DNA from: an uncultured archaeon
GTDB taxonomy: Archaea; Asgardarchaeota; Thorarchaeia; Thorarchaeales; Thorarchaeaceae
Assembly: GCA_964590575.1 (NCBI GenBank)
Contig: CAZPWM010000097.1
Span: forward strand, 1-11,936
Length of the DNA: 11,936 nucleotides
Direction: 5' to 3'
Part shown: positions 815 to 11,936 of the stretch, one piece after another
How the letters are laid out: each line of letters begins with the position of its first letter
How positions within the stretch are numbered: the first letter of the stretch is position 1
Translations under genes and position numbers: made by a program
Notes under the pieces: generated by a model
What the model saw: the letters and a program-made list of their open reading frames with translations, nothing else
What the model was told of the DNA's origin: nothing
Databases searched by the model: none

Positions 815-907
815 GGCTCTATTTACAGAATGTCGGCTATTTAAATCTAAAATTGGAGAGAATGTGTTCGTTTGGCAGATTTAAGTGATCATTGATTTAC
901 CAGTTCA

Positions 908-966
908 GGCAAGAAGAGATATTCGGACCTGATTATCTACAGTACAGGCAAGAGAAGCAGATGTTG
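908..966 (+). repeat. Gene-tail repeat copy 1 (degenerate)
   Basis: g GCA AGA a GAG ATA TTC GGA CCT GAT TAT CTA CAG TAC AGG CAA GAG AAG CAG ATG TTG = AR(+1 nt)EIFGPDYLQYRQEKQM; stop changed to TTG, ATG lost; only a weak hairpin relic at about 982-1002. Confidence 0.9.
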
Positions 967-1089
967 TATCCTCAAACAATAGATGAGAAGCCATTCCTCT
1001 TCGTAACCTATAATCTTAAAGAAGTTGATTCCCAATTCTAAGGGAACCAGTGAGAAACGGAATACGCTTCATTGAAAGGATGTGACGTT

Positions 1090-2412
1090 GTGAGTAAACA
1101 GGAATCACAGATGCTAGAGAGAGTGCATAGAGAAGAAATCAGCTTCATTGACCTCATGTTTTCAGATTTGTCGGGTCAGCTGAAATGTGTGACCATCTCA
1201 CCGAGGGAATTAGAAGTATGCTTAGAGCAGGGCAAATGGTTTGATGGTTCGTCTGTCGAGGGGTTTACCAGAATCCATGAGAGTGACATGTTGCTGATTC
1301 CTGATGCAGCAACCTATATCAAGTTGCCTTGGCTGCGAGACGGAAGAAAAGCGGCAAGAATCATTTGTGATGTCTGTGAACCTGACAGAGTACCTTTTGC
1401 TGGTGCACCTCGAAACATTTTAAGACGCATTTTCGAGAAGACTGAGACCAAGGGCTGGTTCTACAAGGTTGGCCCCGAAATCGAGTTCTATCTATTTGGA
1501 TCAAAAAGTGAAGGAAACTACCAAGATAGTGCGAGTTACTTCGATTTTTCCCCAAAGGATTTGGGCACCGACATTCGAGCAGTCATCGTTTCCACCTTGG
1601 AGGACCTCGGAATACAGGTGGGGATGTCGCATCATGAGTGTGGTCCCAGTCAGCATGAGATTGACATTGGATATAGTAACGCGTTGAATTGTGCAGACAA
1701 CATCTTGGTTGCTAAGCAAGCCATCAAGACTGTTGCCAGTAGCAGGAATCTTCATGCCTCGTTTATGCCAAAACCCAGATCAGACGTGGCGGGTAGTGGA
1801 ATGCATACTCACCAATCCATATTCAACAGTAGTGGGGAGAACCTTTTCCATGATGAGGACGACCCATATCGACTCTCCTCTCTCGCGTACCATTTCATGG
1901 GGGGACAATTACAACACATCAGAGAGATGGCTGCCATCCTCTGTCCAACAGTCAACAGCTATAAGCGACTAGGTGGATTCGAGGCGCCAGTCTACGTTTG
2001 TTGGGGACTACGAAATCGGTCTGCGCTGATTCGAGTCCCAAGATATGGTAAGAATCGACAAGAGCCTGCGAGACTGGAACTTAGATGTCCAGATCCAAGC
2101 TGCAATCCTTACATTGCATTTGCAGTTATGTTGGCAGCAGGAATGAAAGGTATCGAGAAGAAGATAGAACCCCCGGAACCTGTAGAAGAAGATGTCTTTG
2201 ATTTCGACGATGCCAAACTTGCACAGTTCTATATCAAATCCTTGCCCTCTGATCTTGGCGAAGCACTAGAAGAGTTTGAGAAAAGTAAGTTCATGAAAGA
2301 AACTTTGGGCGAACATGCGTTTAACAAGTATCTCGGACTCAAACTAGTAGAATGGACAGAGTTCAAGCGATGTGTTTCTGATTGGGAACGAGAACGCTAC
2401 ATGGATTTGTGA
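1090..2412 (+). CDS. glnA: Glutamine synthetase type I (GSI-alpha-like)
   Basis: Motifs FDGSSVEGF, GPEIEFYLF, HHECGPSQHEI, FMPKP, GSGMHTHQS, NSYKRL-GGFEAP, NRSALIRVP, RLELRCPDPSCNPY; about 440 aa. ORF opens at TTG 1072, but GTG 1090 follows an AGGATGTGA RBS-like motif and is the likelier start. Confidence 0.95.
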   Translation: MSKQESQMLERVHREEISFIDLMFSDLSGQLKCVTISPRELEVCLEQGKWFDGSSVEGFTRIHESDMLLIPDAATYIKLPWLRDGRKAARIICDVCEPDRVPFAGAPRNILRRIFEKTETKGWFYKVGPEIEFYLFGSKSEGNYQDSASYFDFSPKDLGTDIRAVIVSTLEDLGIQVGMSHHECGPSQHEIDIGYSNALNCADNILVAKQAIKTVASSRNLHASFMPKPRSDVAGSGMHTHQSIFNSSGENLFHDEDDPYRLSSLAYHFMGGQLQHIREMAAILCPTVNSYKRLGGFEAPVYVCWGLRNRSALIRVPRYGKNRQEPARLELRCPDPSCNPYIAFAVMLAAGMKGIEKKIEPPEPVEEDVFDFDDAKLAQFYIKSLPSDLGEALEEFEKSKFMKETLGEHAFNKYLGLKLVEWTEFKRCVSDWERERYMDL

Positions 2413-2448: not shown

Positions 2449-2571
2449 CGGAATTGTCTTTCCACTATCTAGAGTATGCCAATTATCTCAACAGACGGGG
2501 GGTATGAAATGAGTGGTCAGCAGCAAATGGCATAACAACGCATCATCTCGAAAACAAGGAAGTGGAAAAGC

Positions 2572-2604
2572 GTCATGGCACGCGAGATACTCGGACCTGA
2601 CTAT
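2572..2604 (+). repeat. Gene-tail repeat copy 2 (3'-truncated)
   Basis: GTC ATG GCA CGC GAG ATA CTC GGA CCT GAC TAT = VMAREILGPDY; similarity ends 15 nt before the stop of the convergent gene at 2620. Confidence 0.92.
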
Positions 2605-2619: not shown

Positions 2620-4665
2620 TCACCACTGAATATCTACCCAATACGCAGGATGGTCTGATTGTGGGTCCGTAACGTATTCGCAATCCGAAACGGTTGTTCC
2701 TGGAGAGAGGAAAATGTGGTCAATTTCCCTGCTATTGTTCTCTCCAAGGCTGTTTGTTCCTGTTGGCCACTTGACCCACCAGGAATCAGCTAGAACATCT
2801 GTTGTGAGGTTGTATGGCTCACTGTTCGGTCTAAAATTGAAATCACCCATGAATATCACGTTGCTTTTCCCACTAGACGCATCCAGAATATCATTTTGTA
2901 GAATCATCTTGGTAGATGTTCGTCCATATGTATGCGTTACGTAAACAGTGAATGTTGTCGAACCAACAGTTATCTCAGCCTCGATTGTGGCGGTCTGCTT
3001 CTGGTCGACATCCTCATTATAATGATAGATGGTTCTAGGATTCTCAATCGGATACTTTGACAGTAGCGCAACTCCTGTTGTCCCTGTGACTCCTTTTGGT
3101 CCGAAGTACGAATAAAGGTTCAATTTGTTAGCCAAGTATCTCACAACATCGCAATTTCCCGCAATCTTGCTTGTTTCTTGGAGGCCGATGATATCTGCGT
3201 CGATGTTTCTAATAACCCCGAGCTGGCCATCGTAGTTCTTATTCTGAGCATCGCTGACTCCTTGTTGTAGATTGTAAGTAAGGAGTCGCAAAGAAACAGC
3301 ATCGCCCGATGGGGCTATAGGGTGAGCCTCAAACACAATAGAACCTGTAAGAGTTCCTAGGAACATGACTATCAAAAGCCCCGCGATGATGGTTTCTGTT
3401 CGAGGGAGTTGATGTTGTGTTTCAAAGGAGGGTATATTGTCCTTTACCTTGTAGATAGCTATCAGGAGCACTATCCCAGCTATGAGAAATATGAACCAGA
3501 ACATGTCTCTGAGCAACGGACCAATCACTGGAATAAAACCCCAGACAGAAGTGAGTATTAATGTGAATAACAACACGAGCATGTATAATCCACCTCCTAA
3601 CGTGAAGGCTATGCAAGCTGCCCGTGATGTTGGTACTAACTCAAGACTTGCTAATTTGTGACAGAGGAGAATGAAATCGAATAGAACGATTGGGAACGTG
3701 GCTATCATCAGGTACAACAAGATCGGATGCAGAAACGTTGTAGGCGGAGATAGGATTGGATAGAGGGCCGGGATATCTGGAAAGGGAATTTGATTGACAT
3801 AGACCGTCAAGACAAACAAAGCCACAAACGAGATATTCCAAAGTAAAACTGCCTTTGGCTTCAATCTAGATATTAAGTGTGGACGGTACAACAGAGTGAG
3901 TGCAAACAGTGTGGTCATCAGTGCAACGCCAGATACGACAGCTACATAGTTACTTTCAGTCCATCTAGAGATTACGACAGGGCTACTGAATGCAAAACTG
4001 ACAAAGAATAGAATGCTTGTCAGCCCGAGGGTGATTCCTGCAAGAGTTCTCTTTCGTAAGCGCTGTGGGGCACTTGTCGGTGTAGCAAGGCTGGATTGAG
4101 GGGTCGATGATGCCACATCTTGTACTTCCTTTGAAAAGCCGACCAACATGAAAACTCCTATCGCAGCTAATACCCATCCAATTGCTTGACCCCACCCATA
4201 TGTAGAGAGGTCGATAGTGAAGTTCAGCGTCCTAAGAAGGACAGATGCTGCTAAAGCTAAAGAGAAGCCAATCCCAAACTTAAGGACACGTTGGTTCTTT
4301 TTATCCGACTTACCAAACAACAAGAAGGCAGGAAACAGTATGAAGAAACAGCCAACACCGAGACCTGAGAATGCCATTCTCATCACGGAATCAAAGAGCG
4401 GTTCAACTACTCTGCATGCAATCATGACACCTCCTGCTACAATGAGAATCTTGTCAGGGATCGACTTCCTGAATGCAAGGAAAATGATAGGTGAGAACAT
4501 GAACAACAGCGCGATAGTATTCTGGTTCAGTGATAATGTCATGAGAAGGAGGATGTATGTAGATTCTACATAGTCGGAGAATAGCTGGAGGAAAAACAGC
4601 AACATTATGGTAGTGAAGATGACATCGGAATAATATTCCTCAAAGAGCTCGGCGTTTACTGGCAT
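2620..4665 (-). CDS. Polytopic membrane protein with C-terminal endonuclease/exonuclease/phosphatase (EEP) domain
   Basis: About 445 aa of successive hydrophobic helices, then EEP motifs LLTYNLQQG, DIIGLQE, GVALLSKYPI, VIFMGDFN, IDHIF, SDHPAYW. Confidence 0.9.
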   Translation of the reverse strand: MPVNAELFEEYYSDVIFTTIMLLFFLQLFSDYVESTYILLLMTLSLNQNTIALLFMFSPIIFLAFRKSIPDKILIVAGGVMIACRVVEPLFDSVMRMAFSGLGVGCFFILFPAFLLFGKSDKKNQRVLKFGIGFSLALAASVLLRTLNFTIDLSTYGWGQAIGWVLAAIGVFMLVGFSKEVQDVASSTPQSSLATPTSAPQRLRKRTLAGITLGLTSILFFVSFAFSSPVVISRWTESNYVAVVSGVALMTTLFALTLLYRPHLISRLKPKAVLLWNISFVALFVLTVYVNQIPFPDIPALYPILSPPTTFLHPILLYLMIATFPIVLFDFILLCHKLASLELVPTSRAACIAFTLGGGLYMLVLLFTLILTSVWGFIPVIGPLLRDMFWFIFLIAGIVLLIAIYKVKDNIPSFETQHQLPRTETIIAGLLIVMFLGTLTGSIVFEAHPIAPSGDAVSLRLLTYNLQQGVSDAQNKNYDGQLGVIRNIDADIIGLQETSKIAGNCDVVRYLANKLNLYSYFGPKGVTGTTGVALLSKYPIENPRTIYHYNEDVDQKQTATIEAEITVGSTTFTVYVTHTYGRTSTKMILQNDILDASSGKSNVIFMGDFNFRPNSEPYNLTTDVLADSWWVKWPTGTNSLGENNSREIDHIFLSPGTTVSDCEYVTDPQSDHPAYWVDIQW

Positions 4666-4733
4666 GGCAGAGGATATACTCTACCCACCTAAAATGTGTG
4701 TCTAAAAAAAGCAGGAATACTAATTTTATCGCT

Positions 4734-4793
4734 ATGGCACGAGAGATACTCGGACCTGACTATCTGCTGTACAGGCAAGACAAACAGATGTAG
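4734..4793 (+). repeat. Gene-tail repeat copy 3 (intact frame)
   Basis: ATG..TAG, 60 nt = MAREILGPDYLLYRQDKQM*. Confidence 0.95.
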
Positions 4794-4803
4794 ATTTACA
4801 CGA

Positions 4804-4841
4804 AAGAGGGGATTCATACTCCCCTTTTCTCTTTCTTTTTT
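4804..4841 (+). terminator. Stem-loop plus pyrimidine tract belonging to repeat copy 3
   Basis: AAGAGGGGA-ttcatac-TCCCCTTTT (9 bp including one G:U) followed by ctctttctttttt. Confidence 0.7.
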
Positions 4842-4979
4842 AATTCTCATACTCGTAACCATTCGTACCAATGGAAAGATTGCGTGGGTTGGTGAGTCAT
4901 CATCCACTACCGCATTTGTATGCCACCTAGAGGACGATAGATGAAAGGGATGGAAAATTTACGGACCGGAGTAATTGCC

Positions 4980-4987
4980 TTTTATAT
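4980..4987 (+). promoter_or_regulatory. Candidate archaeal TATA box for the MBL-fold gene
   Basis: TTTTATAT about 25-30 nt upstream of the GGTGTGAT RBS-like motif (5011-5018); motif and spacing only. Confidence 0.45.
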
Positions 4988-5023
4988 GGTGAAAGTGCAG
5001 TGAAAGTACTGGTGTGATCTGAA

Positions 5024-5671
5024 ACGAGATTCACAATAGTGTATGATAACGAGGCAAAGCCAGGTTTCAAGAGTGGTTGGGGATTCTCTTGTCTTATTGG
5101 AGAAAGCGTGTTATTTGATACTGGACCGGATTCCAGAGCACTACTGTACAACTTGGAGAAGCTGGAGATAGAGCTCCAAGAGATTGATGCAGTTGTACTC
5201 TCTCACAGTCATGGCGATCATACAGGTGGTATTGAGATTGTGGGGCTGCTTGATGATGTCCGAGTGTTTGTTCCAAGATCGTTCTTTAAACCCTTGAGGA
5301 GAAGACTCTCCAGATTTGACCATGTAGAGCTGGTAGAAGTCAGTGATGTGATGAATGTCATGGAGGGAATCACTTCAACTGGTGAGATTGGCAGAATAGG
5401 AGAACAGTCCTTAGTAGTGCGAACCCCCAAGGGACTTGTGTTAGTAACGGGTTGCAGTCATCCGGGTCTAGATACAATAATGAATATGACACAGCAGTCT
5501 GGAGTCATTTATGGTGTCATTGGCGGATTTCATGGGTTTGATAAGCTTGAGATTCTCAACGATGTTCGGATGATAGTTCCATGTCACTGCACAAGACTGA
5601 AGAAACGCATTCTCACACACTATCCTGAAACTAGTAGACAATGTGCTGCAGGCAGTATCTTTGACATCTAG
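5024..5671 (+). CDS. MBL-fold metallo-hydrolase (COG1237 / DHPS-like MBL subfamily)
   Basis: Motifs (RFTI)VYDN, GWGFSCLI, LFDTG, LSHSHGDHTGG (HxHxDH), TGCSHPG, GGFH, PCHCT. First canonical start is GTG 5039, but family-like sequence extends to an ACG at 5024 (see findings). Confidence 0.9.
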   Translation, partial: TRFTIVYDNEAKPGFKSGWGFSCLIGESVLFDTGPDSRALLYNLEKLEIELQEIDAVVLSHSHGDHTGGIEIVGLLDDVRVFVPRSFFKPLRRRLSRFDHVELVEVSDVMNVMEGITSTGEIGRIGEQSLVVRTPKGLVLVTGCSHPGLDTIMNMTQQSGVIYGVIGGFHGFDKLEILNDVRMIVPCHCTRLKKRILTHYPETSRQCAAGSIFDI

Positions 5672-5765
5672 CTAATCAAGGCGGTAAAATGGTGTTGAGT
5701 GTGCTTAATCATTATTTCTGAGCGAAGAGATCATCTGTTTCATTCAGATGAGTACATGCTCTTTG

Positions 5766-5792
5766 GACAAGAGAAGCAGATGTAGTTTCGAA
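5766..5792 (+). repeat. Gene-tail repeat copy 4 (5'-truncated)
   Basis: ga CAA GAG AAG CAG ATG TAG tttcgaa = QEKQM*; no clear terminator hairpin retained. Confidence 0.85.
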
Positions 5793-5817
5793 TTTCTACT
5801 TAGCCATTCTACACAAT

Positions 5818-6069
5818 TCAGAATGCTCGAATACGACCAGACTCAACAATATCTATTGGGACCCCCTCAATCTCATCAGGGATGATATCACACTCTTCAA
5901 GTTCTCCTACTGGTTTCTTTTGTATGACATAGCAGATAATACAGAGCTGGTTAGTCTTGATGCCATCGATATGCTTGTGACCGATTGCTACACCTACGAC
6001 TCCGGATTTCCTCATGAGCTCCTTTTCATACTCTGCCTTTACCCGTTTGACTTCTTCCAGCGTGACCAT
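5818..6069 (-). CDS. Small protein homologous to the N-terminal domain of the adjacent serine protease
   Basis: 83 aa, GAGGT RBS, starts 9 nt after the protease stop; aligns by eye over its whole length with protease residues 1-79 (EEVKR/EEVRR, VVGVAIGHK/VVGVMIGYK, IICYV/IICLV, DIIP/DLIP, GRIRAF/GKLRAF). Confidence 0.88.
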   Translation of the reverse strand: MVTLEEVKRVKAEYEKELMRKSGVVGVAIGHKHIDGIKTNQLCIICYVIQKKPVGELEECDIIPDEIEGVPIDIVESGRIRAF

Positions 6070-6078
6070 GGAACAACC

Positions 6079-7092
6079 TCAATCAGTGATTAGTTCCGCA
6101 TCCAGTAAGTCCAGATAGTTTTGCACCTGATTTGCTATTGTAATGTTCTGCTCGTCACTACCAGCGAAGAGATTGCCCACTGCATATCCCTCCATGTCCA
6201 AGATTAGACTTCCTGAGTCGCCTCCAGCACTGAAACCCTCCTTGCTTATAACTATCTGATCTCTGAAATACGCAAGTCTCCCTCCGTAGTCTATAGGACC
6301 CAAGGTGGCATCTATACCAGTTACCACTCCATCAACTGTATGGCATGACGTTCTTCCCGACTTCTGTACAAGCATGTCTAATTGAGTTTGTCTAATACCC
6401 CGTGGCACTCCAATGTCCACAATGCTACTTGAAACGTCAGTCTCAGTCACTTCAATCATGGCAGCATCTACTATGTTATACTCAGGATACGCAACCACTG
6501 GTTGTAGCCTTGTCATCCTTCCAAAAGCCCTCGCAGGAACATTATAAATCCCGCTCCAGAACCTTGCTGCTGCACATTCGCTCTGGTCCAAAGCGAAGCT
6601 TATTGGTACGAATCTCAAGAGATGTCCTATCGTGTCGTTTTGAACAGTACCGCCATCATACGATCCAGGCTGGAGATAGGGGTCTCCGATCTTGGCATTA
6701 TTTGAGTTTGCTCCAACGTGATTGTTAGTTCCAATGCATGTCTTGCCTGTCTTCTTATCTCTGAGCAGCTCTCCATTCGTGCCTGCAGTAACCAAATAGT
6801 GACCTCCTGAGGTGCCCATGGGGCAAGGTCTGTGCCGAGCCTTTTTATCTATTTGAAAGGCCCTCAATTTCCCAACCTGTATCACATCAATCATTTCTTC
6901 ATCTATGATAGAGGGAATAAGGTCTTGTTTTTTCAAGTCCTGTTCCTTGACTTTCCTCTCTACTAGACAAATTATGCTTAATGTATCGGTCTTTTCACCT
7001 GCTGATACCTTGTATCCTATCATCACTCCTACTACATTGGCCATCCTCAATAGCCTCTTCTCATGAATCCTCCTTACCTCTTCAATCTTCAT
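6079..7092 (-). CDS. Trypsin-like (clan PA) serine protease, Nal1-like architecture
   Basis: Catalytic triad motifs TNNHV (His), VDAA (Asp), GDSGS (Ser); also QPG..DGG, VQKSGRT, VGNLFAG. AGGTGG RBS upstream; no signal peptide apparent. Confidence 0.9.
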   Translation of the reverse strand: MKIEEVRRIHEKRLLRMANVVGVMIGYKVSAGEKTDTLSIICLVERKVKEQDLKKQDLIPSIIDEEMIDVIQVGKLRAFQIDKKARHRPCPMGTSGGHYLVTAGTNGELLRDKKTGKTCIGTNNHVGANSNNAKIGDPYLQPGSYDGGTVQNDTIGHLLRFVPISFALDQSECAAARFWSGIYNVPARAFGRMTRLQPVVAYPEYNIVDAAMIEVTETDVSSSIVDIGVPRGIRQTQLDMLVQKSGRTSCHTVDGVVTGIDATLGPIDYGGRLAYFRDQIVISKEGFSAGGDSGSLILDMEGYAVGNLFAGSDEQNITIANQVQNYLDLLDAELITD

Positions 7093-7269
7093 ACTGCTTA
7101 ACCACCTATTAGGACTCTCACCTCAGACAATCTAGAATGACATCTATCATGCAAATTGTGGTCCCGTAATGAAGATGCGGTAACTTCTACTTCAATCTTT
7201 TCACAAATTTAGGAAATAGGCATATAGATTGGATTCCAATCCTTCCTTGAAGATGGAACCACTCGGTTC

Positions 7270-7340
7270 GTCATGGCACGAGAAATATTTGGACCCGAGT
7301 ATCTGCCGTACAGGCAAGAAGAAACAGATGTAGTTTCAAG
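7270..7340 (+). repeat. Gene-tail repeat copy 5 (1-nt insertion near the end)
   Basis: GTC ATG GCA CGA GAA ATA TTT GGA CCC GAG TAT CTG CCG TAC AGG CAA GA(a)G AAA CAG ATG TAG tttcaag = VMAREIFGPEYLPYRQE..KQM*. Confidence 0.95.
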
Positions 7341-7349
7341 AATTCAATG

Positions 7350-7373
7350 AGAGAGGTGAATCCTCTCTTTTCT
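7350..7373 (+). terminator. Stem-loop plus pyrimidine tract belonging to repeat copy 5
   Basis: AGAGAGG-tgaat-CCTCTCT then tttct. Confidence 0.7.
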
Positions 7374-7496
7374 GACCAAGCAGCTAAGAGCAATCGTCAA
7401 CCGGAAAGTGGATTCCTAGAAATGCTTCACTGCGATGACGGACGGAGCTATTGAAGTCGCTGTAGTGGTAGTAGTCATTTTCTTTACTTGAATTGG

Positions 7497-7715
7497 TTAT
7501 CCAGTTTTTCGTCCCTTTGTGAGATAATAAACCACCGAGATGGCGAAGAGGATGAGACCTCCTATATGAATCAAGGTAATAGTCCACCACTCAACTACCA
7601 AGTTCTCAGGAGGAGTTACCCAAATACCTAAGGGAATTCCCAGAATGAGCTTCCAGACTAATCCGATTATAAATAAGACAAAGCCCACTATTGCTACTTT
7701 TCCTGAAATATGCAA
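7497..7715 (-). CDS. Small hypothetical membrane protein (about 2 TM helices)
   Basis: 72 aa, TTG start preceded by purine-rich GGGAGAGGAAGAG, two hydrophobic segments and a basic C-terminus (TKGRKTG); fills the space between repeat copies 5 and 6. Confidence 0.72.
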   Translation of the reverse strand: MHISGKVAIVGFVLFIIGLVWKLILGIPLGIWVTPPENLVVEWWTITLIHIGGLILFAISVVYYLTKGRKTG

Positions 7716-7774
7716 GACTCTTCCTCTCCCGTGTATGTCAAACAGGTATCTAATTAGTATTCCGTTCAGTTTAT

Positions 7775-7849
7775 CTTTTAAGAATCATCATGGCGAGAGA
7801 GATATTCGGACCTGAGTATCTACCGTACAGGCAAGAGAAACAAATGTAA
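7775..7849 (+). repeat. Gene-tail repeat copy 6 (intact frame, TAA stop)
   Basis: CTT TTA AGA ATC ATC ATG GCG AGA GAG ATA TTC GGA CCT GAG TAT CTA CCG TAC AGG CAA GAG AAA CAA ATG TAA = LLRIIMAREIFGPEYLPYRQEKQM*. Confidence 0.95.
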
Positions 7850-7859
7850 CTTCCATCAT

Positions 7860-7892
7860 TTGAGAGGGGCATTCCCTCTCAACACTTCTTTT
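7860..7892 (+). terminator. Stem-loop plus pyrimidine tract belonging to repeat copy 6
   Basis: TTGAGAGGG-gcatt-CCCTCTCAA (perfect 9 bp) then cacttctttt. Confidence 0.72.
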
Positions 7893-8012
7893 CATAATAG
7901 ATTGATTAATTATTTCTATCTTAATCTCACTTGTGCTTCACTTCTTCTCAGAACAAAAGGCAGAAATTACAATTCATCCATACCTAAGATGGATGCTGGT
8001 GGAGTTGAGGTT

Positions 8013-8969
8013 TTGAATAAATCGTATTTTCAGAGCTTTTTGATTGTTGTTTCAAGCTTAGTATTTCCATGTGCTGTTATGGAGTATAGTACACCACTAT
8101 TCACATACGTTCAAGTATGGATTTTCCCTTTTGGGGCTTTTTTTCAAGAATTCGGGATTGGTAATTATCCTACATCCAGCCAATTTGTTATGCTATTCTC
8201 TCAGAGCTATCTGATTCTATTCAGTATAATAGAACTAGTGACAAGCGTGGCGATTGGACTGATTCTTGCCACAATAGTAGTTACATTACAAGAAAGCACA
8301 GATATCATTAAGAAAATATATGTCTTCACGATTTTATTATTATTAATTACAATACAAGTTGCTCTCGCTATTGATGTGGTGACATTATTTGCGTTAGGTG
8401 GATCCTTATTATGGGCTAATTACATCTTCCCTCTACCAATCCCACTTCTCATAGCGATCCTATTGTTAAAGCATAAAGGCTTTAGATTTATGCGTGAATC
8501 GTATTTTCAGGGGTTTTTAATTTTTATTTCAAGCCTAATGTTGCCATTCGCTGTCGTGGGCTTTGAGACTAATAGCCAAAATTGGCTCTTCCCATTTGGT
8601 GTGTATCAACTAAGTTTTAGTGAACATCTAGTAAGGAGTGGATTTCTTATGCCATTCTATCGTGAAAATTGGTTTCCTTATTTCATCATATTTGCAGTTG
8701 TCTGGGGGGCGATAGGACTGATTTTTGCCGCAGAAGTGATTAAATTATGGGGAGGTAAAAAATTCACTAAGAAAGCATTTTCTATTTCTATTATATTGCT
8801 TACATTGGAAATTGTTGGCCCCATTGTAGCGGTATTATTGATGTATGGCTGGACCTTAGCATATATTTCATATATCATTCCTCTACCGATTCCATATCTC
8901 GTAGCAATTCTATTACTGAGGCGTCGCGGTGTCACGCTTATGTCTGTAAAGAAACTTAGAAGATCTTGA
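8013..8969 (+). CDS. Hypothetical integral membrane protein made of two tandem ~159 aa homologous halves
   Basis: Hydrophobic throughout; both halves carry SYFQ.FLI..SSL..P.AV, W.FPFG, IGLI.A, YI.PLPIP.L.AILLL. Start placed at TTG 8013 (GGAGTTGAGG upstream; aligns with ATG 8490 of the second half); ATG 7989 is an alternative. The ORF-track start at 7860 lies inside the repeat hairpin and is unlikely. Confidence 0.82.
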   Translation: MNKSYFQSFLIVVSSLVFPCAVMEYSTPLFTYVQVWIFPFGAFFQEFGIGNYPTSSQFVMLFSQSYLILFSIIELVTSVAIGLILATIVVTLQESTDIIKKIYVFTILLLLITIQVALAIDVVTLFALGGSLLWANYIFPLPIPLLIAILLLKHKGFRFMRESYFQGFLIFISSLMLPFAVVGFETNSQNWLFPFGVYQLSFSEHLVRSGFLMPFYRENWFPYFIIFAVVWGAIGLIFAAEVIKLWGGKKFTKKAFSISIILLTLEIVGPIVAVLLMYGWTLAYISYIIPLPIPYLVAILLLRRRGVTLMSVKKLRRS

Positions 8970-9008
8970 AATAACTCATGATATACTTTAGATTCAATTC
9001 ATTATTCA

Positions 9009-9032
9009 TACAGACAAGAGAAGCAGAGGTTG
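9009..9032 (+). repeat. Gene-tail repeat copy 7 (short, degenerate)
   Basis: TAC AGA CAA GAG AAG CAG AGG TTG = YRQEKQ(R)(L). Confidence 0.75.
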
Positions 9033-9119
9033 CCTTCTCCATAGTAGCCAGTGTTTGCTACCAACTAGCCTCTTGAGGTGAATGGTCAATCACTCTTGGT
9101 ATAGTTGAACTATACATCT

Positions 9120-9188
9120 AGAGAAACAGATGTAGTTTCAAGTTCAGATCCAGAGATGGGCTTCCTTTCTCTTCATTCTTCTTTTTCT
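9120..9188 (+). repeat. Gene-tail repeat copy 8 (5'-truncated) with imperfect terminator hairpin
   Basis: a GAG AAA CAG ATG TAG tttcaag = EKQM*; then AGAGAtGG-gctt-CCttTCTCT (9152-9172) and a long T/C tract. Confidence 0.88.
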
Positions 9189-9202
9189 AACACAATCAAT
9201 TG

Positions 9203-10690
9203 TCATCGTAATCTATTGGCTTCCAAGAACTTAGCCCAATATCGCTCATTTCTGAAGATATAAGTGGTCGGAACTGCGGACTTAAAACCGATTCCGGATT
9301 TTTCCCGCCGAAAACCACTAGTCCTCTCTTGACAACTTCTGCAATAAGGCACGCCAAGCGCCACAGCGTACTGCCTAAGACCAGCAACAGCGAACTCCTC
9401 ACTATGGTCTATACGCACCTCAGCCGGACCGCAACAGAGACAACAGCAGTCAGGCCAGACCACATCCTTTCTGAGCGTTTCCACTTCGTATTCAGGCGAG
9501 GAGCTTACCTCGCCGCTGACTTCAAACGTGTCTATGACCGAGGAATCCTCCGAGCTGCGAAAAGCATGCAGAATCTTCCCATAAGACACAAAGACCATCC
9601 CGAAGCTAACTACTGGCCTGCTGATATCAGCCATCAACCCACCCGGGAGGCTCTCCGACTCCCACCGCTTGGTGACACGGGAAGTGTTGATGACGATGAT
9701 CTTGTCGATTGAGGTCACGAAAATGAATCCGTTCGCTATATCCCATGAGTCCCTGGTGACAAGTGATTTGATACAGGTGTGCCATTGCTCCTCTCCGGTG
9801 GAGAGATCGTAGGCCAATATGACATTCGCTGTGTGGAGCGGAATTGTTTTACCAACTAGTCCTTCTACGTAGAGAGTATTGCCTTGCACTACCATAGAGT
9901 CCATCTTCTCCATAGTTGGTGTGAACATTGCCGCAACTTTTCCGCTGGACAGATCTAGTCCAACCAGCTTCTTTGTACAGTATGCATATCCGCCGGCAAT
10001 CGTTGGGGGGCGACCGTAGTGCAGCACATCATGAGCCTCCCACAAGACAGCCCCGTTGTTGGGGTCAAGTGCATACAGGTTGTCATCTGCAGCAATCAGC
10101 AACTTGTCCTCGACCAGTATAGGAATGGAGTGGTTCTTGTGTTTTGACTTCCATATCCATCGTCTGGAACCATTAGAAGAATCAATTGCATAGACATGCT
10201 TGTCTTGGCATCCGAAGAAGACTGTCCCATAAGCCACAGTAGGGCATGATATTTCGCCCCCAGAAGAGAATTGCCATCTTCCTTTGCCGGTTTCCATATC
10301 AACAGCATGCAGCTTCTTATCCTTGGTTGTCACATAGACGACCCCTTCAGCCAAGACCGGTCCTTCGACCCAATTAATGAAGTCTTTACCAGAAGAGAAA
10401 TGCCAAATTTCAGAGCCTGTTTGGGAATCAAGAGCGTACATCTTCTTATCATTACTAGGGGCGAATATAATGTCGTTTTCCTCGATAAGAGGAAGCTTCA
10501 ACCCCTTGCCCATTTTGAAAGTCCACTTCACTGATCCTGACATAGCATCAAGCGCGTAGATGATACCTTTCTTGCTTCCAAAGATGATTGTGCTGCTCTC
10601 TGAGGTTGTGCCTCCTTGACGGAGGCCAAATATACTGCTATCTGCCTGAAACTCCCAAGACTTCTCCAACGGAGGAACTGGTTTTGACAT
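9203..10690 (-). CDS. PQQ-binding-like beta-propeller repeat protein with C-terminal Cys-rich domain
   Basis: Repeated YALD..(S/T)G...W.F units (YALDAMSGSVKWTF, YALDSQTGSEIWHF, HAVDMETGKGRWQF, YAIDSSNGSRRWIW, YALDPNNGAVLWEA, AYDLSTGEEQWHT); C-terminal WPDCCCLCCGP...VPYCRSC; no signal peptide apparent. Confidence 0.9.
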   Translation of the reverse strand: MSKPVPPLEKSWEFQADSSIFGLRQGGTTSESSTIIFGSKKGIIYALDAMSGSVKWTFKMGKGLKLPLIEENDIIFAPSNDKKMYALDSQTGSEIWHFSSGKDFINWVEGPVLAEGVVYVTTKDKKLHAVDMETGKGRWQFSSGGEISCPTVAYGTVFFGCQDKHVYAIDSSNGSRRWIWKSKHKNHSIPILVEDKLLIAADDNLYALDPNNGAVLWEAHDVLHYGRPPTIAGGYAYCTKKLVGLDLSSGKVAAMFTPTMEKMDSMVVQGNTLYVEGLVGKTIPLHTANVILAYDLSTGEEQWHTCIKSLVTRDSWDIANGFIFVTSIDKIIVINTSRVTKRWESESLPGGLMADISRPVVSFGMVFVSYGKILHAFRSSEDSSVIDTFEVSGEVSSSPEYEVETLRKDVVWPDCCCLCCGPAEVRIDHSEEFAVAGLRQYAVALGVPYCRSCQERTSGFRREKSGIGFKSAVPTTYIFRNERYWAKFLEANRLR

Positions 10691-10780
10691 GATATGTAGA
10701 ACTCCCTTAACTCACCGACTGTCTTGGGAAACGGATGGAATGGAGCTTCCTTGAAGATAAGGATGTCGATTCTGATCTTC

Positions 10781-10816
10781 TTGCTGCACCGACAAGAGAA
10801 ACAGATGTAGTTTTCA
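10781..10816 (+). repeat. Gene-tail repeat copy 9 (5'-truncated)
   Basis: TTG CTG CAC CGA CAA GAG AAA CAG ATG TAG ttttca = LLHRQEKQM*. Confidence 0.88.
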
Positions 10817-10825
10817 GTTTCAAGT

Positions 10826-10858
10826 GAGAGAGGGTTTCCCTCTCTCCTTTACTTTTCC
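10826..10858 (+). terminator. Stem-loop plus pyrimidine tract belonging to repeat copy 9
   Basis: GAGAGAGGG-ttt-CCCTCTCTC (perfect 9 bp) then ctttacttttcc. Confidence 0.72.
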
Positions 10859-10866
10859 AATTGCAG

Positions 10867-11802
10867 TCACAAAGGAAACTGTTTGGATAGCCAAGGACAG
10901 CAATCTCTGTTTGTCCTGTGGAAGTCCTCCCAGGTAAGCCATCCTAACCTACGGCGTATCTTAAGCCAATCCAGATTCTTCCTGTGAGGCAGGTCGACAG
11001 CTATGGATTCTGCATTCCTCTTGTAATCATTGAATTTGCATCCATATAACCTGCGAGAGGGATGGATTTTGAACATTTGAGGTGTCAACAGGAGGAACAG
11101 TGTGTTCTCAGGATTCCTCTTGGATAATGGTTCACAGAGATGTTTGTTTTCTTCCAACAGGACATCGATGATTCTAGAAATCTGGTTCCGAGTGGCGTCA
11201 TAGGTGATCTGATAGCTGATGTCTGACAACACCTTTGCTTCTACTAGCACTGCGAACCCGTTGCTGGGATTTATGAGCAAGGCGTCTAGGTGTGTGGGAC
11301 CTTCCACATTCTTCTTTCCATAAGCACTGCTTAAGACGTGGGGTACGAATTGGCGCTCATGTAAGTTTCGGCGAAGCCACGCCTTGTAGGAGGGCGGTGA
11401 GGGGAGGGTGGTTTCAAAGAATAGCTCTAAATCTCCTTCCAGACACTCTCGCCAAGAAGCCAAGCCGGTAAGAGGAGGAGTTTCACCAAAAGCCTCAATG
11501 AAGAGCTTCTGCAACCTCTGAAGTCGTCGTTCGTCATAGAACATTATCATCATACAGGAGGCAACCCAGAACCGTTCATCCTTCTCTATCTGACAGGGTT
11601 CCTTCATCTTTGACAGAGGTCTTCCTCTCATATCCGGGGTGTCAGCAAGAAAACGATGATACCTTTGGATGCTATTCTTGTAGTAGCTCAGATGCTTCTC
11701 ATTCCTAATGCATTCTCCTCGATACTTGACCTTGGCAAAATGGTTCATCAACTGCTCTTCCGTGAAAGGTAGATATGTATCATCTAAAACATCTTTCATC
11801 AA
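10867..11802 (-). CDS. Hypothetical protein, probable PD-(D/E)xK nuclease fold
   Basis: 311 aa, GGGAG RBS; EGPTHLDALL...AVLVEAKVLSDI...RNQISR resembles the D...ExK...Q catalytic arrangement of PD-(D/E)xK nucleases. Start TTG 11802 or ATG 11799. Confidence 0.7.
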   Translation of the reverse strand: MMKDVLDDTYLPFTEEQLMNHFAKVKYRGECIRNEKHLSYYKNSIQRYHRFLADTPDMRGRPLSKMKEPCQIEKDERFWVASCMMIMFYDERRLQRLQKLFIEAFGETPPLTGLASWRECLEGDLELFFETTLPSPPSYKAWLRRNLHERQFVPHVLSSAYGKKNVEGPTHLDALLINPSNGFAVLVEAKVLSDISYQITYDATRNQISRIIDVLLEENKHLCEPLSKRNPENTLFLLLTPQMFKIHPSRRLYGCKFNDYKRNAESIAVDLPHRKNLDWLKIRRRLGWLTWEDFHRTNRDCCPWLSKQFPL

Positions 11803-11840
11803 TGATTACTCCCTACTTCAAGAATAATTCGTTCGATATG

Positions 11841-11924
11841 AATCTGCTGAAGATTGTCATGGCACGGGAAATTCTCGGACCTGACTACTTATCTTACAGG
11901 CAAGAGAAACGGACGTAGTTTCAA
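11841..11924 (+). repeat. Gene-tail repeat copy 10 (longest, intact frame)
   Basis: AAT CTG CTG AAG ATT GTC ATG GCA CGG GAA ATT CTC GGA CCT GAC TAC TTA TCT TAC AGG CAA GAG AAA CGG ACG TAG tttcaa = NLLKIVMAREILGPDYLSYRQEKRT*; any hairpin would fall beyond the window edge. Confidence 0.95.
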
Positions 11925-11936
11925 TTATCAAATCGA

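Follow-up and report, generated by a model that had tools for sequence, protein, structure and literature searches.

A cassette array in Thorarchaeota punctuated by a repeat that resembles the end of an acyl-CoA dehydrogenase gene

Why should a repeat that separates one accessory gene from the next evolve as though it encoded protein? The question is raised by an 11,936-nt contig (C97, analysed entire and called the window here) from a Thorarchaeota genome, G000, of 3.40 Mb in 194 contigs with 43.5% G+C, in which a unit of about 117 nt recurs along one strand. An initial annotation of the window had taken the copies for alleles of a C-terminus displaced from a functional gene. Judged from its sequence, the unit is the duplicated tail of an acyl-CoA dehydrogenase (ACAD) gene, comprising the last ~23 codons and a terminator-like hairpin.

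The repeat unit and its parent gene

Copies were located by nhmmer, with a profile built from five window copies and run on all 194 contigs. Nine matches at E<=0.01 were found in the window, where a repeat search also returned overlapping families of same-strand direct repeats, and a weaker tenth match brings the number of copies or fragments of the unit to ten, all on the + strand (Table 1). The initial annotation had placed the repeat at positions 4734-11918; copies do lie there, but those further to the left, at 901-973 and 2570-2604, had been omitted. Another contig of the same genome, C100, holds four profile matches, again on the + strand, and nothing better than E=0.38 was found on the remaining contigs. 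Across 84 displaced copies (those that do not end a live gene), conservation begins 7 nt before an ATG and runs to ~110 nt after it, which gives a unit of ~117 nt that reaches ~50 nt past the stop codon and consists of a 60-nt frame, a short TTTCAA motif and a hairpin of the type GAGAGAGG-loop-CCTCTCTC.

The origin of this unit can be read from genomes in which the array starts on a long contig. In G035, G030 and G012 (loci L022, L024 and L028), an open reading frame (ORF) of 412-473 amino acids runs in frame into the left-most copy and ends there. This ORF matches PF02771, PF02770 and PF00441 (Acyl-CoA_dh_N/M/1), all above cut-offs; no NCBIfam equivalog reaches its cut-off. The protein, of 413 amino acids and encoded by a single-copy gene, terminates in ..GAEGGSHVQKIVMAREIFGPEYLPYRQEKQM, a tail also given as ..KIVMAREIFGPEYLPYRQEKQM, each followed directly by the stop, with the residues ..K-I-V-M-A-R-E-I-F-G-P-E/D-Y-L-P-Y-R-Q-E-K-Q-M-stop. 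In G000 the parent gene lies at C155:3995-5190, on a contig that ends within the repeat at ..IVQAREI. These gene ends bear out the earlier proposal that the repeat is the C-terminus of a functional gene. The ACAD ortholog was a single match per genome in 26 of 41 genomes of the family, and it sits at contig ends in many of these metagenome-assembled genomes. In G012, leuA, leuC, leuD and leuB-like genes are found directly upstream of it.

The distribution of the unit was assessed by BLASTN, with one unit as query, against 60 relatives. Within the genus, 23 of 27 genomes gave a match (best E<=1e-8), and so did 5 of 9 that belong to other genera of the family (E<=1e-5); the matches tend to be grouped on single contigs, all with the same strand. 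The 24 genomes from outside the family had no match at E<=1e-3. Scanning 185,579 species genomes with a pattern returned loci whose titles are almost all Candidatus Thorarchaeota, with a few stray labels, and two patterns (the 3′ core and the back-translated peptide) had no match among IMG/VR viral contigs. Among the genomes searched, the array is limited to one Thorarchaeota family.

Coding signature and decay of the copies

The codon variants on which the initial annotation built its case can all be read in the window. Arg3 is CGC at 2574, CGA at 4734 and 7273, AGA at 7790 and 907, and CGG at 11859, and the remaining variants are equally present (Ala GCA/GCG, Glu GAG/GAA, Ile ATA/ATT, Pro CCT/CCC, Asp/Glu GAC/GAT/GAG, Tyr TAT/TAC, Leu CTG/CTA/TTA, Arg14 AGG/AGA/CGA, Lys AAA/AAG, Gln CAG/CAA, stop TAG/TAA). 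So are the linked allele types, LGPD at 2574, 4734 and 11859, FGPE at 7273 and 7790, and FGPD at 907, as well as the frameshifts caused by one-base insertions in the copies at 907 and 7273 and the loss of the stop in those at 907 and 9009.

The coding signature was tested on 89 gapless displaced copies from at least 16 genomes, drawn from 156 placed copies (112 near full length), with 18 live-gene-end copies taken out beforehand. Diversity at codon positions 1, 2 and 3 was 0.192, 0.165 and 0.406, respectively, and the third-position excess was reached in 0 of 100,000 permutations (p<1e-5). The ratio of nonsynonymous to synonymous polymorphism (pN/pS) was 0.28 in the proposed frame, whereas shifting the sense frame raised it to 1.38 and 1.57; the antisense frames gave 1.10, 0.34 and 1.74, the frame with 0.34 being the one that has the true frame's wobble position. 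The displaced copies therefore evolve as coding DNA, as had been proposed, with the lowest pN/pS of the six frames computed in the proposed one, and RNA covariation did not account better for the substitutions. The live gene ends gave a pN/pS of 0.15 (n=14), and the seven gapless copies of G000 alone gave 0.37, compared with 0.97 and 1.48 in the other sense frames. Both Arg codons vary between A and C at the first position, as the genetic code permits, and the wobble pattern extends to the two codons that precede the ATG (ATC/ATT/ATA, then GTC). In G035, a displaced copy and the live end differ in eight codons, all of them synonymously, and encode an identical peptide.

The ATG, the frame and the stop are retained in 55 of the 89 displaced copies. 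The other 34 (~38%) are disrupted (ATG lost in 22, stop lost in 13, stop gained in 6, some copies being counted under several defects), and further copies are halves or bear indels. Because so many are disrupted, the displaced copies are best described as decaying relics, which agrees with the earlier suggestion of decay after displacement.

The alleles of the displaced copies are genus-specific and match the gene ends of their own genus. Copies and gene ends of genus g4 share PENLPYRQEKQK before the stop (PEN..QK) and an identical post-stop sequence, and genus g9 has PEC. The displaced copies of genus g1 belong mostly to one 'cassette-type' family (GPDYLP in 22 of 79, GPEYLP in 11 of 79), which is near the live ends of G012 and G014 and unlike those of G005, G020 and G000 (Q-type). 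The G000 gene, as noted, reads ..IVQAREI, and most copies in the G000 array read MAREI; the gene ends of G005 and G020 scored 38.9 and 23.5 bits, respectively, against 64-76 for their displaced copies, bit scores being biased here by a profile made from this window's copies. Since such copies are unlike the resident gene end, they often do not derive from the present end of the same genome. For G000, G005 and G020 this fits an origin elsewhere, in line with the donor lineages that the initial annotation had envisaged.

Cassette reassortment and its explanation

Downstream of ACAD, the array is built of cassettes of one or two genes, 0.4-4 kb long with a few of 9-13 kb, and one unit copy stands between neighbouring cassettes, all copies pointing in the same direction. 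Between first and last copies we counted 162 cassette ORFs of at least 80 amino acids, 84 on the repeat's strand and 78 on the opposite one. When 150 of these were compared with Pfam, 12 were NosD/beta-helix proteins, three each were glutamine synthetases, LVIVD-repeat proteins, zinc alcohol dehydrogenases, methyltransferases and GNAT acetyltransferases, and many families were singletons.

The linkage of cassettes to their flanking repeats, compared as aligned segments, was surveyed in 117 non-redundant loci holding 290 copies and 189 cassettes. Twenty cassette pairs on different contigs were 85-98.7% identical, and all 20 have different neighbours. The 40 nt upstream of the left repeat were unrelated in 18 of 20 pairs; the left hairpin reached at least 85% identity in 11 of the 20, all of them among the 12 pairs with bodies that agree at 92.8% or more. 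On the right the 40 nt upstream of the repeat were at least 79% identical in 15 of 20 pairs, and the hairpin was at most 66% identical in all 20. Mismatch maps put the left change-points at about +17 to +45 and the right ones at about 0 to +60, an invariant 3′ core hiding the exact positions. Cassettes reassort between genomes, and their joints lie within the ~60-70-nt coding part at varying positions. With the junctions inside the coding part, the hairpin moves with the cassette on its right and the pre-unit sequence with the cassette on its left. Partial copies break at model positions 20-53, and their use as proof of a fixed crossover was rejected on account of this range. Because junctions vary within the repeat, many copies are chimeras rather than fossil termini in order. 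The initial annotation's view of the array as a record of successive replacements is not borne out in that form, since cassettes and halves of the unit reassort and no decay gradient with distance from the gene was seen (pooled rho 0.11, p 0.55, n=30, on the same biased bit scores).

We consider it probable that the duplicated ACAD end is the recombination zone of a cassette array, and that it is coding-like by descent and by exchange with the live end. Cassettes would be gained and lost through recombination between unit copies: two direct repeats would loop out a circle composed of one cassette and one chimeric repeat, and the circle could re-enter at any copy, including the live gene end. 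Exchange with the live ACAD end would keep passing repeat segments through selection, and displaced copies would then drift, losing ATGs and stops and acquiring frameshifts. On this account the repeat would look coding because it descends from the functional ends of several lineages and continues to exchange with the live one. The scatter of junctions along the unit, together with the absence of a linked integrase, leads us to prefer homology-driven recombination, or the action of a recombinase from another locus, to a fixed cut of the integron type.

Searches for a recombinase gave the following picture. PF00589 had no match on the array contigs of G080, G015, G035 and G030. Nor was it found anywhere in G000 and G035 (91% and 97% complete), the same search being positive in 14 of 14 control genomes, and no Xer-like gene was detected in these two genomes. 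PF16795 had no match in five genomes, and PF00239 matches were confined to other contigs or lay more than 200 kb from the arrays. No recombinase family was found among the ORFs of the window, of two 13-kb inserts described below or of C100, or among the 25 commonest Pfam families of 150 cassette and 70 flanking ORFs; these families include the methyltransferases, TPR proteins and small GTPases of the array flanks.

Several observations weigh against a gene end acting as recombination zone. We infer the mechanism of gain and loss, having seen neither a recombinase nor an excised circle; a recombinase that occurs a single time could also have escaped the lists of the 25 commonest families. Homologous recombination would be acting on short stretches, 60-110 nt at 70-90% identity, and the missing decay gradient does not fit. 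The 20 pairs are not independent, two triples sharing a cassette and some loci perhaps belonging to one genome. The 5′ part of the right repeat is often less similar than the cassette body (median 79%; at least 88% in 5 of 20 pairs), the 5′ part of the left repeat is at background (median 70%), and this asymmetry is not predicted by single-crossover models. In the complete Thorarchaeota chromosome G088, a five-copy array has no orthologous ACAD gene adjacent to it. Finally, the last codons of the g1 displaced copies (CAA GAG AAA CAG) have a third-position variation of 0.07-0.35, compared with 0.32-0.48 in five g1 gene ends and 0.34-0.54 in all 14, a small gene-end sample; this uniformity hints at a DNA-level constraint or homogenisation outside the coding explanation.

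Two side observations touch on these points. The G088 array (L164, C1:3060138-3065176) has only a 27%-identical ACAD paralogue, 12 kb downstream. Codons 16-20 as a whole (AGG CAA GAG AAA CAG) are, in g1, more uniform synonymously in displaced copies than in live ends (CAA in 74 of 79 displaced copies; CAA in three and CAG in two of the five ends), and this could reflect a recombination core, gene conversion or common descent.

The recombination-zone account has to be set beside serial site-specific integration. Here a tyrosine or serine integrase, since lost or encoded elsewhere, would insert plasmids or viruses at the gene end, each element having the ACAD 3′ end as its attP, and displaced ends would accumulate downstream. 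Such insertion would readily explain why the direct repeat is the 3′ end of its target gene, including a replacement stop and terminator, and the identical peptide with eight synonymous differences fits an element-borne end under selection. There are also published precedents, for archaeal elements that use 3′-distal sites in protein genes and form arrays by re-use of the site (PMC6563490) and for e14 at icd (PMC6379469). Nevertheless we think this scenario rather unlikely, since neither the cassettes examined nor the flanks of the arrays yielded an integrase, most cassettes measure 0.4-4 kb and hold one or two ordinary accessory genes, the junctions are spread across the repeat instead of being fixed, the live ends of G005 and G020 are unlike the adjacent cassette-type copies, and the pattern occurs in no IMG/VR viral contig.

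Folding and upstream conservation bear on two further explanations. The 65 nt after the stop have a minimum free energy of -12.3 kcal/mol, compared with -7.6 for shuffles, the post-stop hairpin folds at -8 kcal/mol or below in 68 of 84 copies, and its variants are compensatory (GAGAGAGG/CCTCTCTC, GAGGGAG/CTCCCTC, AGGGG/CCCCT). A structured RNA or DNA element, whether an attC-like folded site, a regulatory RNA or a repeat like the repetitive extragenic palindromes, would account for this hairpin, and integron attC arrays have been reported from Asgard archaea (10.1101/2022.02.06.479319). However, the coding part folds like its shuffles (-11.0 versus -10.5), RNAalifold found 0 conserved pairs in 60 copies, no Rfam family matches any copy, and there is no GTTRRRY/RYYYAAC pair at the unit ends. 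The variation follows the genetic code, down to the A/C first positions of the Arg codons, and ORF orientation (84 same, 78 opposite) is unlike that of integron cassettes; a structured element is thus very improbable as the explanation of the repeat. The hairpin after most copies, and the ATG, open frame and stop kept by 55 of 89, would equally suit the alternative named in the initial annotation, a family of 19-amino-acid peptides that start at the conserved ATG and have their own terminators. We give it hardly any credence: information content at -50 to -11 is at most 0.13 bit in the 84 displaced copies, with no shared promoter, TATA-like box or ribosome-binding site, and the wobble conservation that runs into the preceding ATC GTC codons is that of an internal piece of a longer gene. 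In addition, 34 of 89 copies are disrupted, the identical sequence is the in-frame ACAD end, and the unit is confined to one locus.

The array in the window and in relation to known systems

The features of the window are listed in Table 1. Two of its cassettes have relatives in other arrays: the glutamine synthetase cassette recurs at 76-78% identity with different neighbours, and the 311-amino-acid gene has a homologous cassette in the array of another genome (L091). The 369-amino-acid membrane protein has halves that share 72 nt at 76% identity (8011-8082 and 8488-8559). To the left of copy 7 and off the repeat, a sub-threshold match to the C/D-box snoRNA snoR160 was noted at 8942-9015 on the - strand (31.2 bits, gathering score 42, E 0.09).

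Table 1. Repeat copies and cassette genes of the 11,936-nt window, with start or extent of the nhmmer profile match
Feature	Position	Strand	Profile match	Description
Copy 1	900..1010	+	901-973, E 2.3e-19	Degenerate full-length; CAG replaces ATG (as in G000's own ACAD gene), 1-nt insertion, stop lost
Cassette gene	1072..2412	+		Glutamine synthetase
Copy 2	2567..2604	+	2570	5′ half only, MAREILGPDY..
Cassette gene	2620..4665	-		Membrane protein with Exo_endo_phos domain
Copy 3	4727..4840	+	4726	Intact 19-codon frame and stop (4734-4793), then terminator-like hairpin and T-rich run
Cassette gene	5039..5671	+		Metallo-beta-lactamase fold
Copy 4	5749..5795	+	5749	3′ part only, ..QEKQM and stop
Two-gene cassette	5818..7092	-		NAL1_N-like domains
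Copy 5	7266..7375	+	7265	Full length, 1-nt insertion near 3′ end (frameshift), plus hairpin
Small cassette ORF	7497..7715	-		72 amino acids, weak FtsX-like match
Copy 6	7783..7895	+	7784	Intact frame MAREIFGPEYLPYRQEKQM and stop (7790-7849), plus GAGAGGGG..CCCTCTC hairpin
Cassette gene	7860..8969	+		369-amino-acid membrane protein, internal duplication, without Pfam family
Copy 7	9007..9039	+	9007	3′ fragment, stop lost
Copy 8	9119..9175	+	9119-9141, E=0.15	Last codons, stop and hairpin
Cassette gene	9203..10690	-		PQQ-like beta-propeller protein
Copy 9	10781..10850	+	10781	3′ part, stop and hairpin
Cassette gene	10867..11802	-		311 amino acids, no Pfam or NCBIfam family
Copy 10	11852..11936	+	11852	Full frame MAREILGPDYLSYRQEKRT and stop, truncated by contig end

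The first nucleotides of C100 belong to a copy that matches the one closing C97 except at three positions, and because of this near-identity the array most likely runs on from C97 into C100, the assembly having broken at the repeat. On C100 (L001, 1-8490), copies stand at 1, 740 and 1947, followed by a 5′ half (6256) and, near 8452, by a degenerate fragment of the 3′ part, and the cassettes encode a 2Fe-2S ferredoxin, an MtrH-like methyltransferase, a beta-lactamase-fold protein and a helix-turn-helix protein. From ~9890, with a CBS-domain gene and onward, C100 matches the sequence right after the last copy in G016 (L081).

Larger cassettes were noted elsewhere. Inserts of ~13 kb lie between copies at L064:2014-15361 and L057:2411-15316 and include type I restriction-modification HsdR/M/S, a GmrSD nuclease, a HerA-like ATPase adjoining a LAGLIDADG-like protein, an NB-ARC/TPR NTPase with a HEPN-like N-terminus, catalase, thioredoxin, and a DprA and ComF-like pair. 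Giant single-ORF cassettes occur at L023:589-8694 (2,701 amino acids) and L025:3438-12644 (3,068 amino acids); giant genes are mentioned for Thorarchaeota in PMC8813620.

Contigs from four salt-marsh runs that align with the window (<=1.5 kb, low depth) contain four joints, which we did not use as evidence of excision. Their short sides, 21-60 nt at repeat copies, are probably due to cross-mapping between copies, and the loose ends at copies lead into other contexts, including the ACAD-like upstream sequence of a related population.

A second direct repeat of ~75 nt, unrelated to the first, was observed on contigs C102 and C137 of G000. It reads GGGCGGGGTTGGCTAACGGGACC...GTTGAGCACCC and is followed by a T/C-rich tail. 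On C102 (L166) it stands at about 1049, 1917, 3471, 4125 and 5845, on the same strand, and separates small ORFs. Searches recovered it from 16 of 24 genomes of the genus and from 0 of 16 others. Its position in G005, ~70 nt past a gene's stop, shows that it is not coding. The repeat ends in a GTTRRRY-like motif and may be an attC-type site of the kind reported for Asgard archaea.

The manner of gene acquisition in Asgard archaea matters because no closer relatives of eukaryotes are known. The array offers a variable locus, found across much of one Thorarchaeota family, whose boundaries can be read straight from sequence. We tentatively suggest, as one possibility, that it is an integron-like gene-capture platform without integron parts, in which the site is the ACAD coding tail with its terminator and exchange takes place within a segment of ~70 nt. 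If so, selection on the live gene end would keep the recombination site 'protein-like', an attachment site evolving under protein-level selection and a repeat that for this reason resembles a gene; defence systems, giant surface proteins and metabolic genes would be exchanged through it. Given the second, non-coding repeat family, gene flow in Asgard archaea may make general use of platforms of this kind. Because the repeats break assemblies, placing the parent gene, C97 and C100 on separate contigs, this part of the accessory genome is probably under-reported.

The pdif arrays of Acinetobacter plasmids are likewise made of small gene modules without a recombinase of their own, which lie between repeated sites and are presumably mobilised by recombinases of the host. 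Their sites are 28-bp Xer sites in alternating orientation, whereas the Thorarchaeota repeats, 117 nt long and direct, come from a gene end; a PF00589-type gene was found in neither G000 nor G035. In the literature searched, no paper describes an ACAD-anchored array, and the available portion of a paper on the mobile elements of Heimdallarchaeum makes no mention of one (PMC8813620).

Closer in their target are the elements that insert at gene ends. Prophage e14 (and phage 21) at E. coli icd likewise produces a direct repeat of the 3′ end of a protein-coding gene; in the e14 case, the att duplicates the gene's 3′ end and supplies a replacement terminus, leaving an icd′ pseudo-copy of 163 bp that differs by a conservative amino-acid change (PMC6379469). 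As with these 3′-end-targeting elements, the proximal copy of the Thorarchaeota repeat completes the gene. However, e14 is a single element with its own integrase next to att and one displaced copy, whereas Thorarchaeota genomes have 10-15 or more copies, tiny cassettes free of integrases, spread junctions and conservation across a family. Archaeal elements, too, are reported to integrate in the 3′-distal parts of protein-coding genes and to form arrays (PMC6563490); these proviruses, casposons and cryptic elements span many kb, encode an integrase or casposase and have a short att or target-site duplication, unlike the ~117-nt unit with single accessory genes between its copies and no linked recombinase.

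Asgard archaea are also reported to have integrons and CALINs, the clusters of attC sites that lack an integrase (10.1101/2022.02.06.479319), and the likeness to them lies in small accessory cassettes, a repeated site, a fixed anchor, reassortment and, often, the lack of a nearby integrase. In contrast, the site described here is coding sequence rather than an imperfect palindrome, has no R''/R' core and no GTTRRRY at its 3′ edge, and is anchored by the end of a housekeeping-type gene, not by attI. The array lacks the IntI, attC fold and orientation bias that define an integron, and it is a mobile cassette array. Although it carries no integrase of its own, it shares the logic of both integrons and integrative elements.

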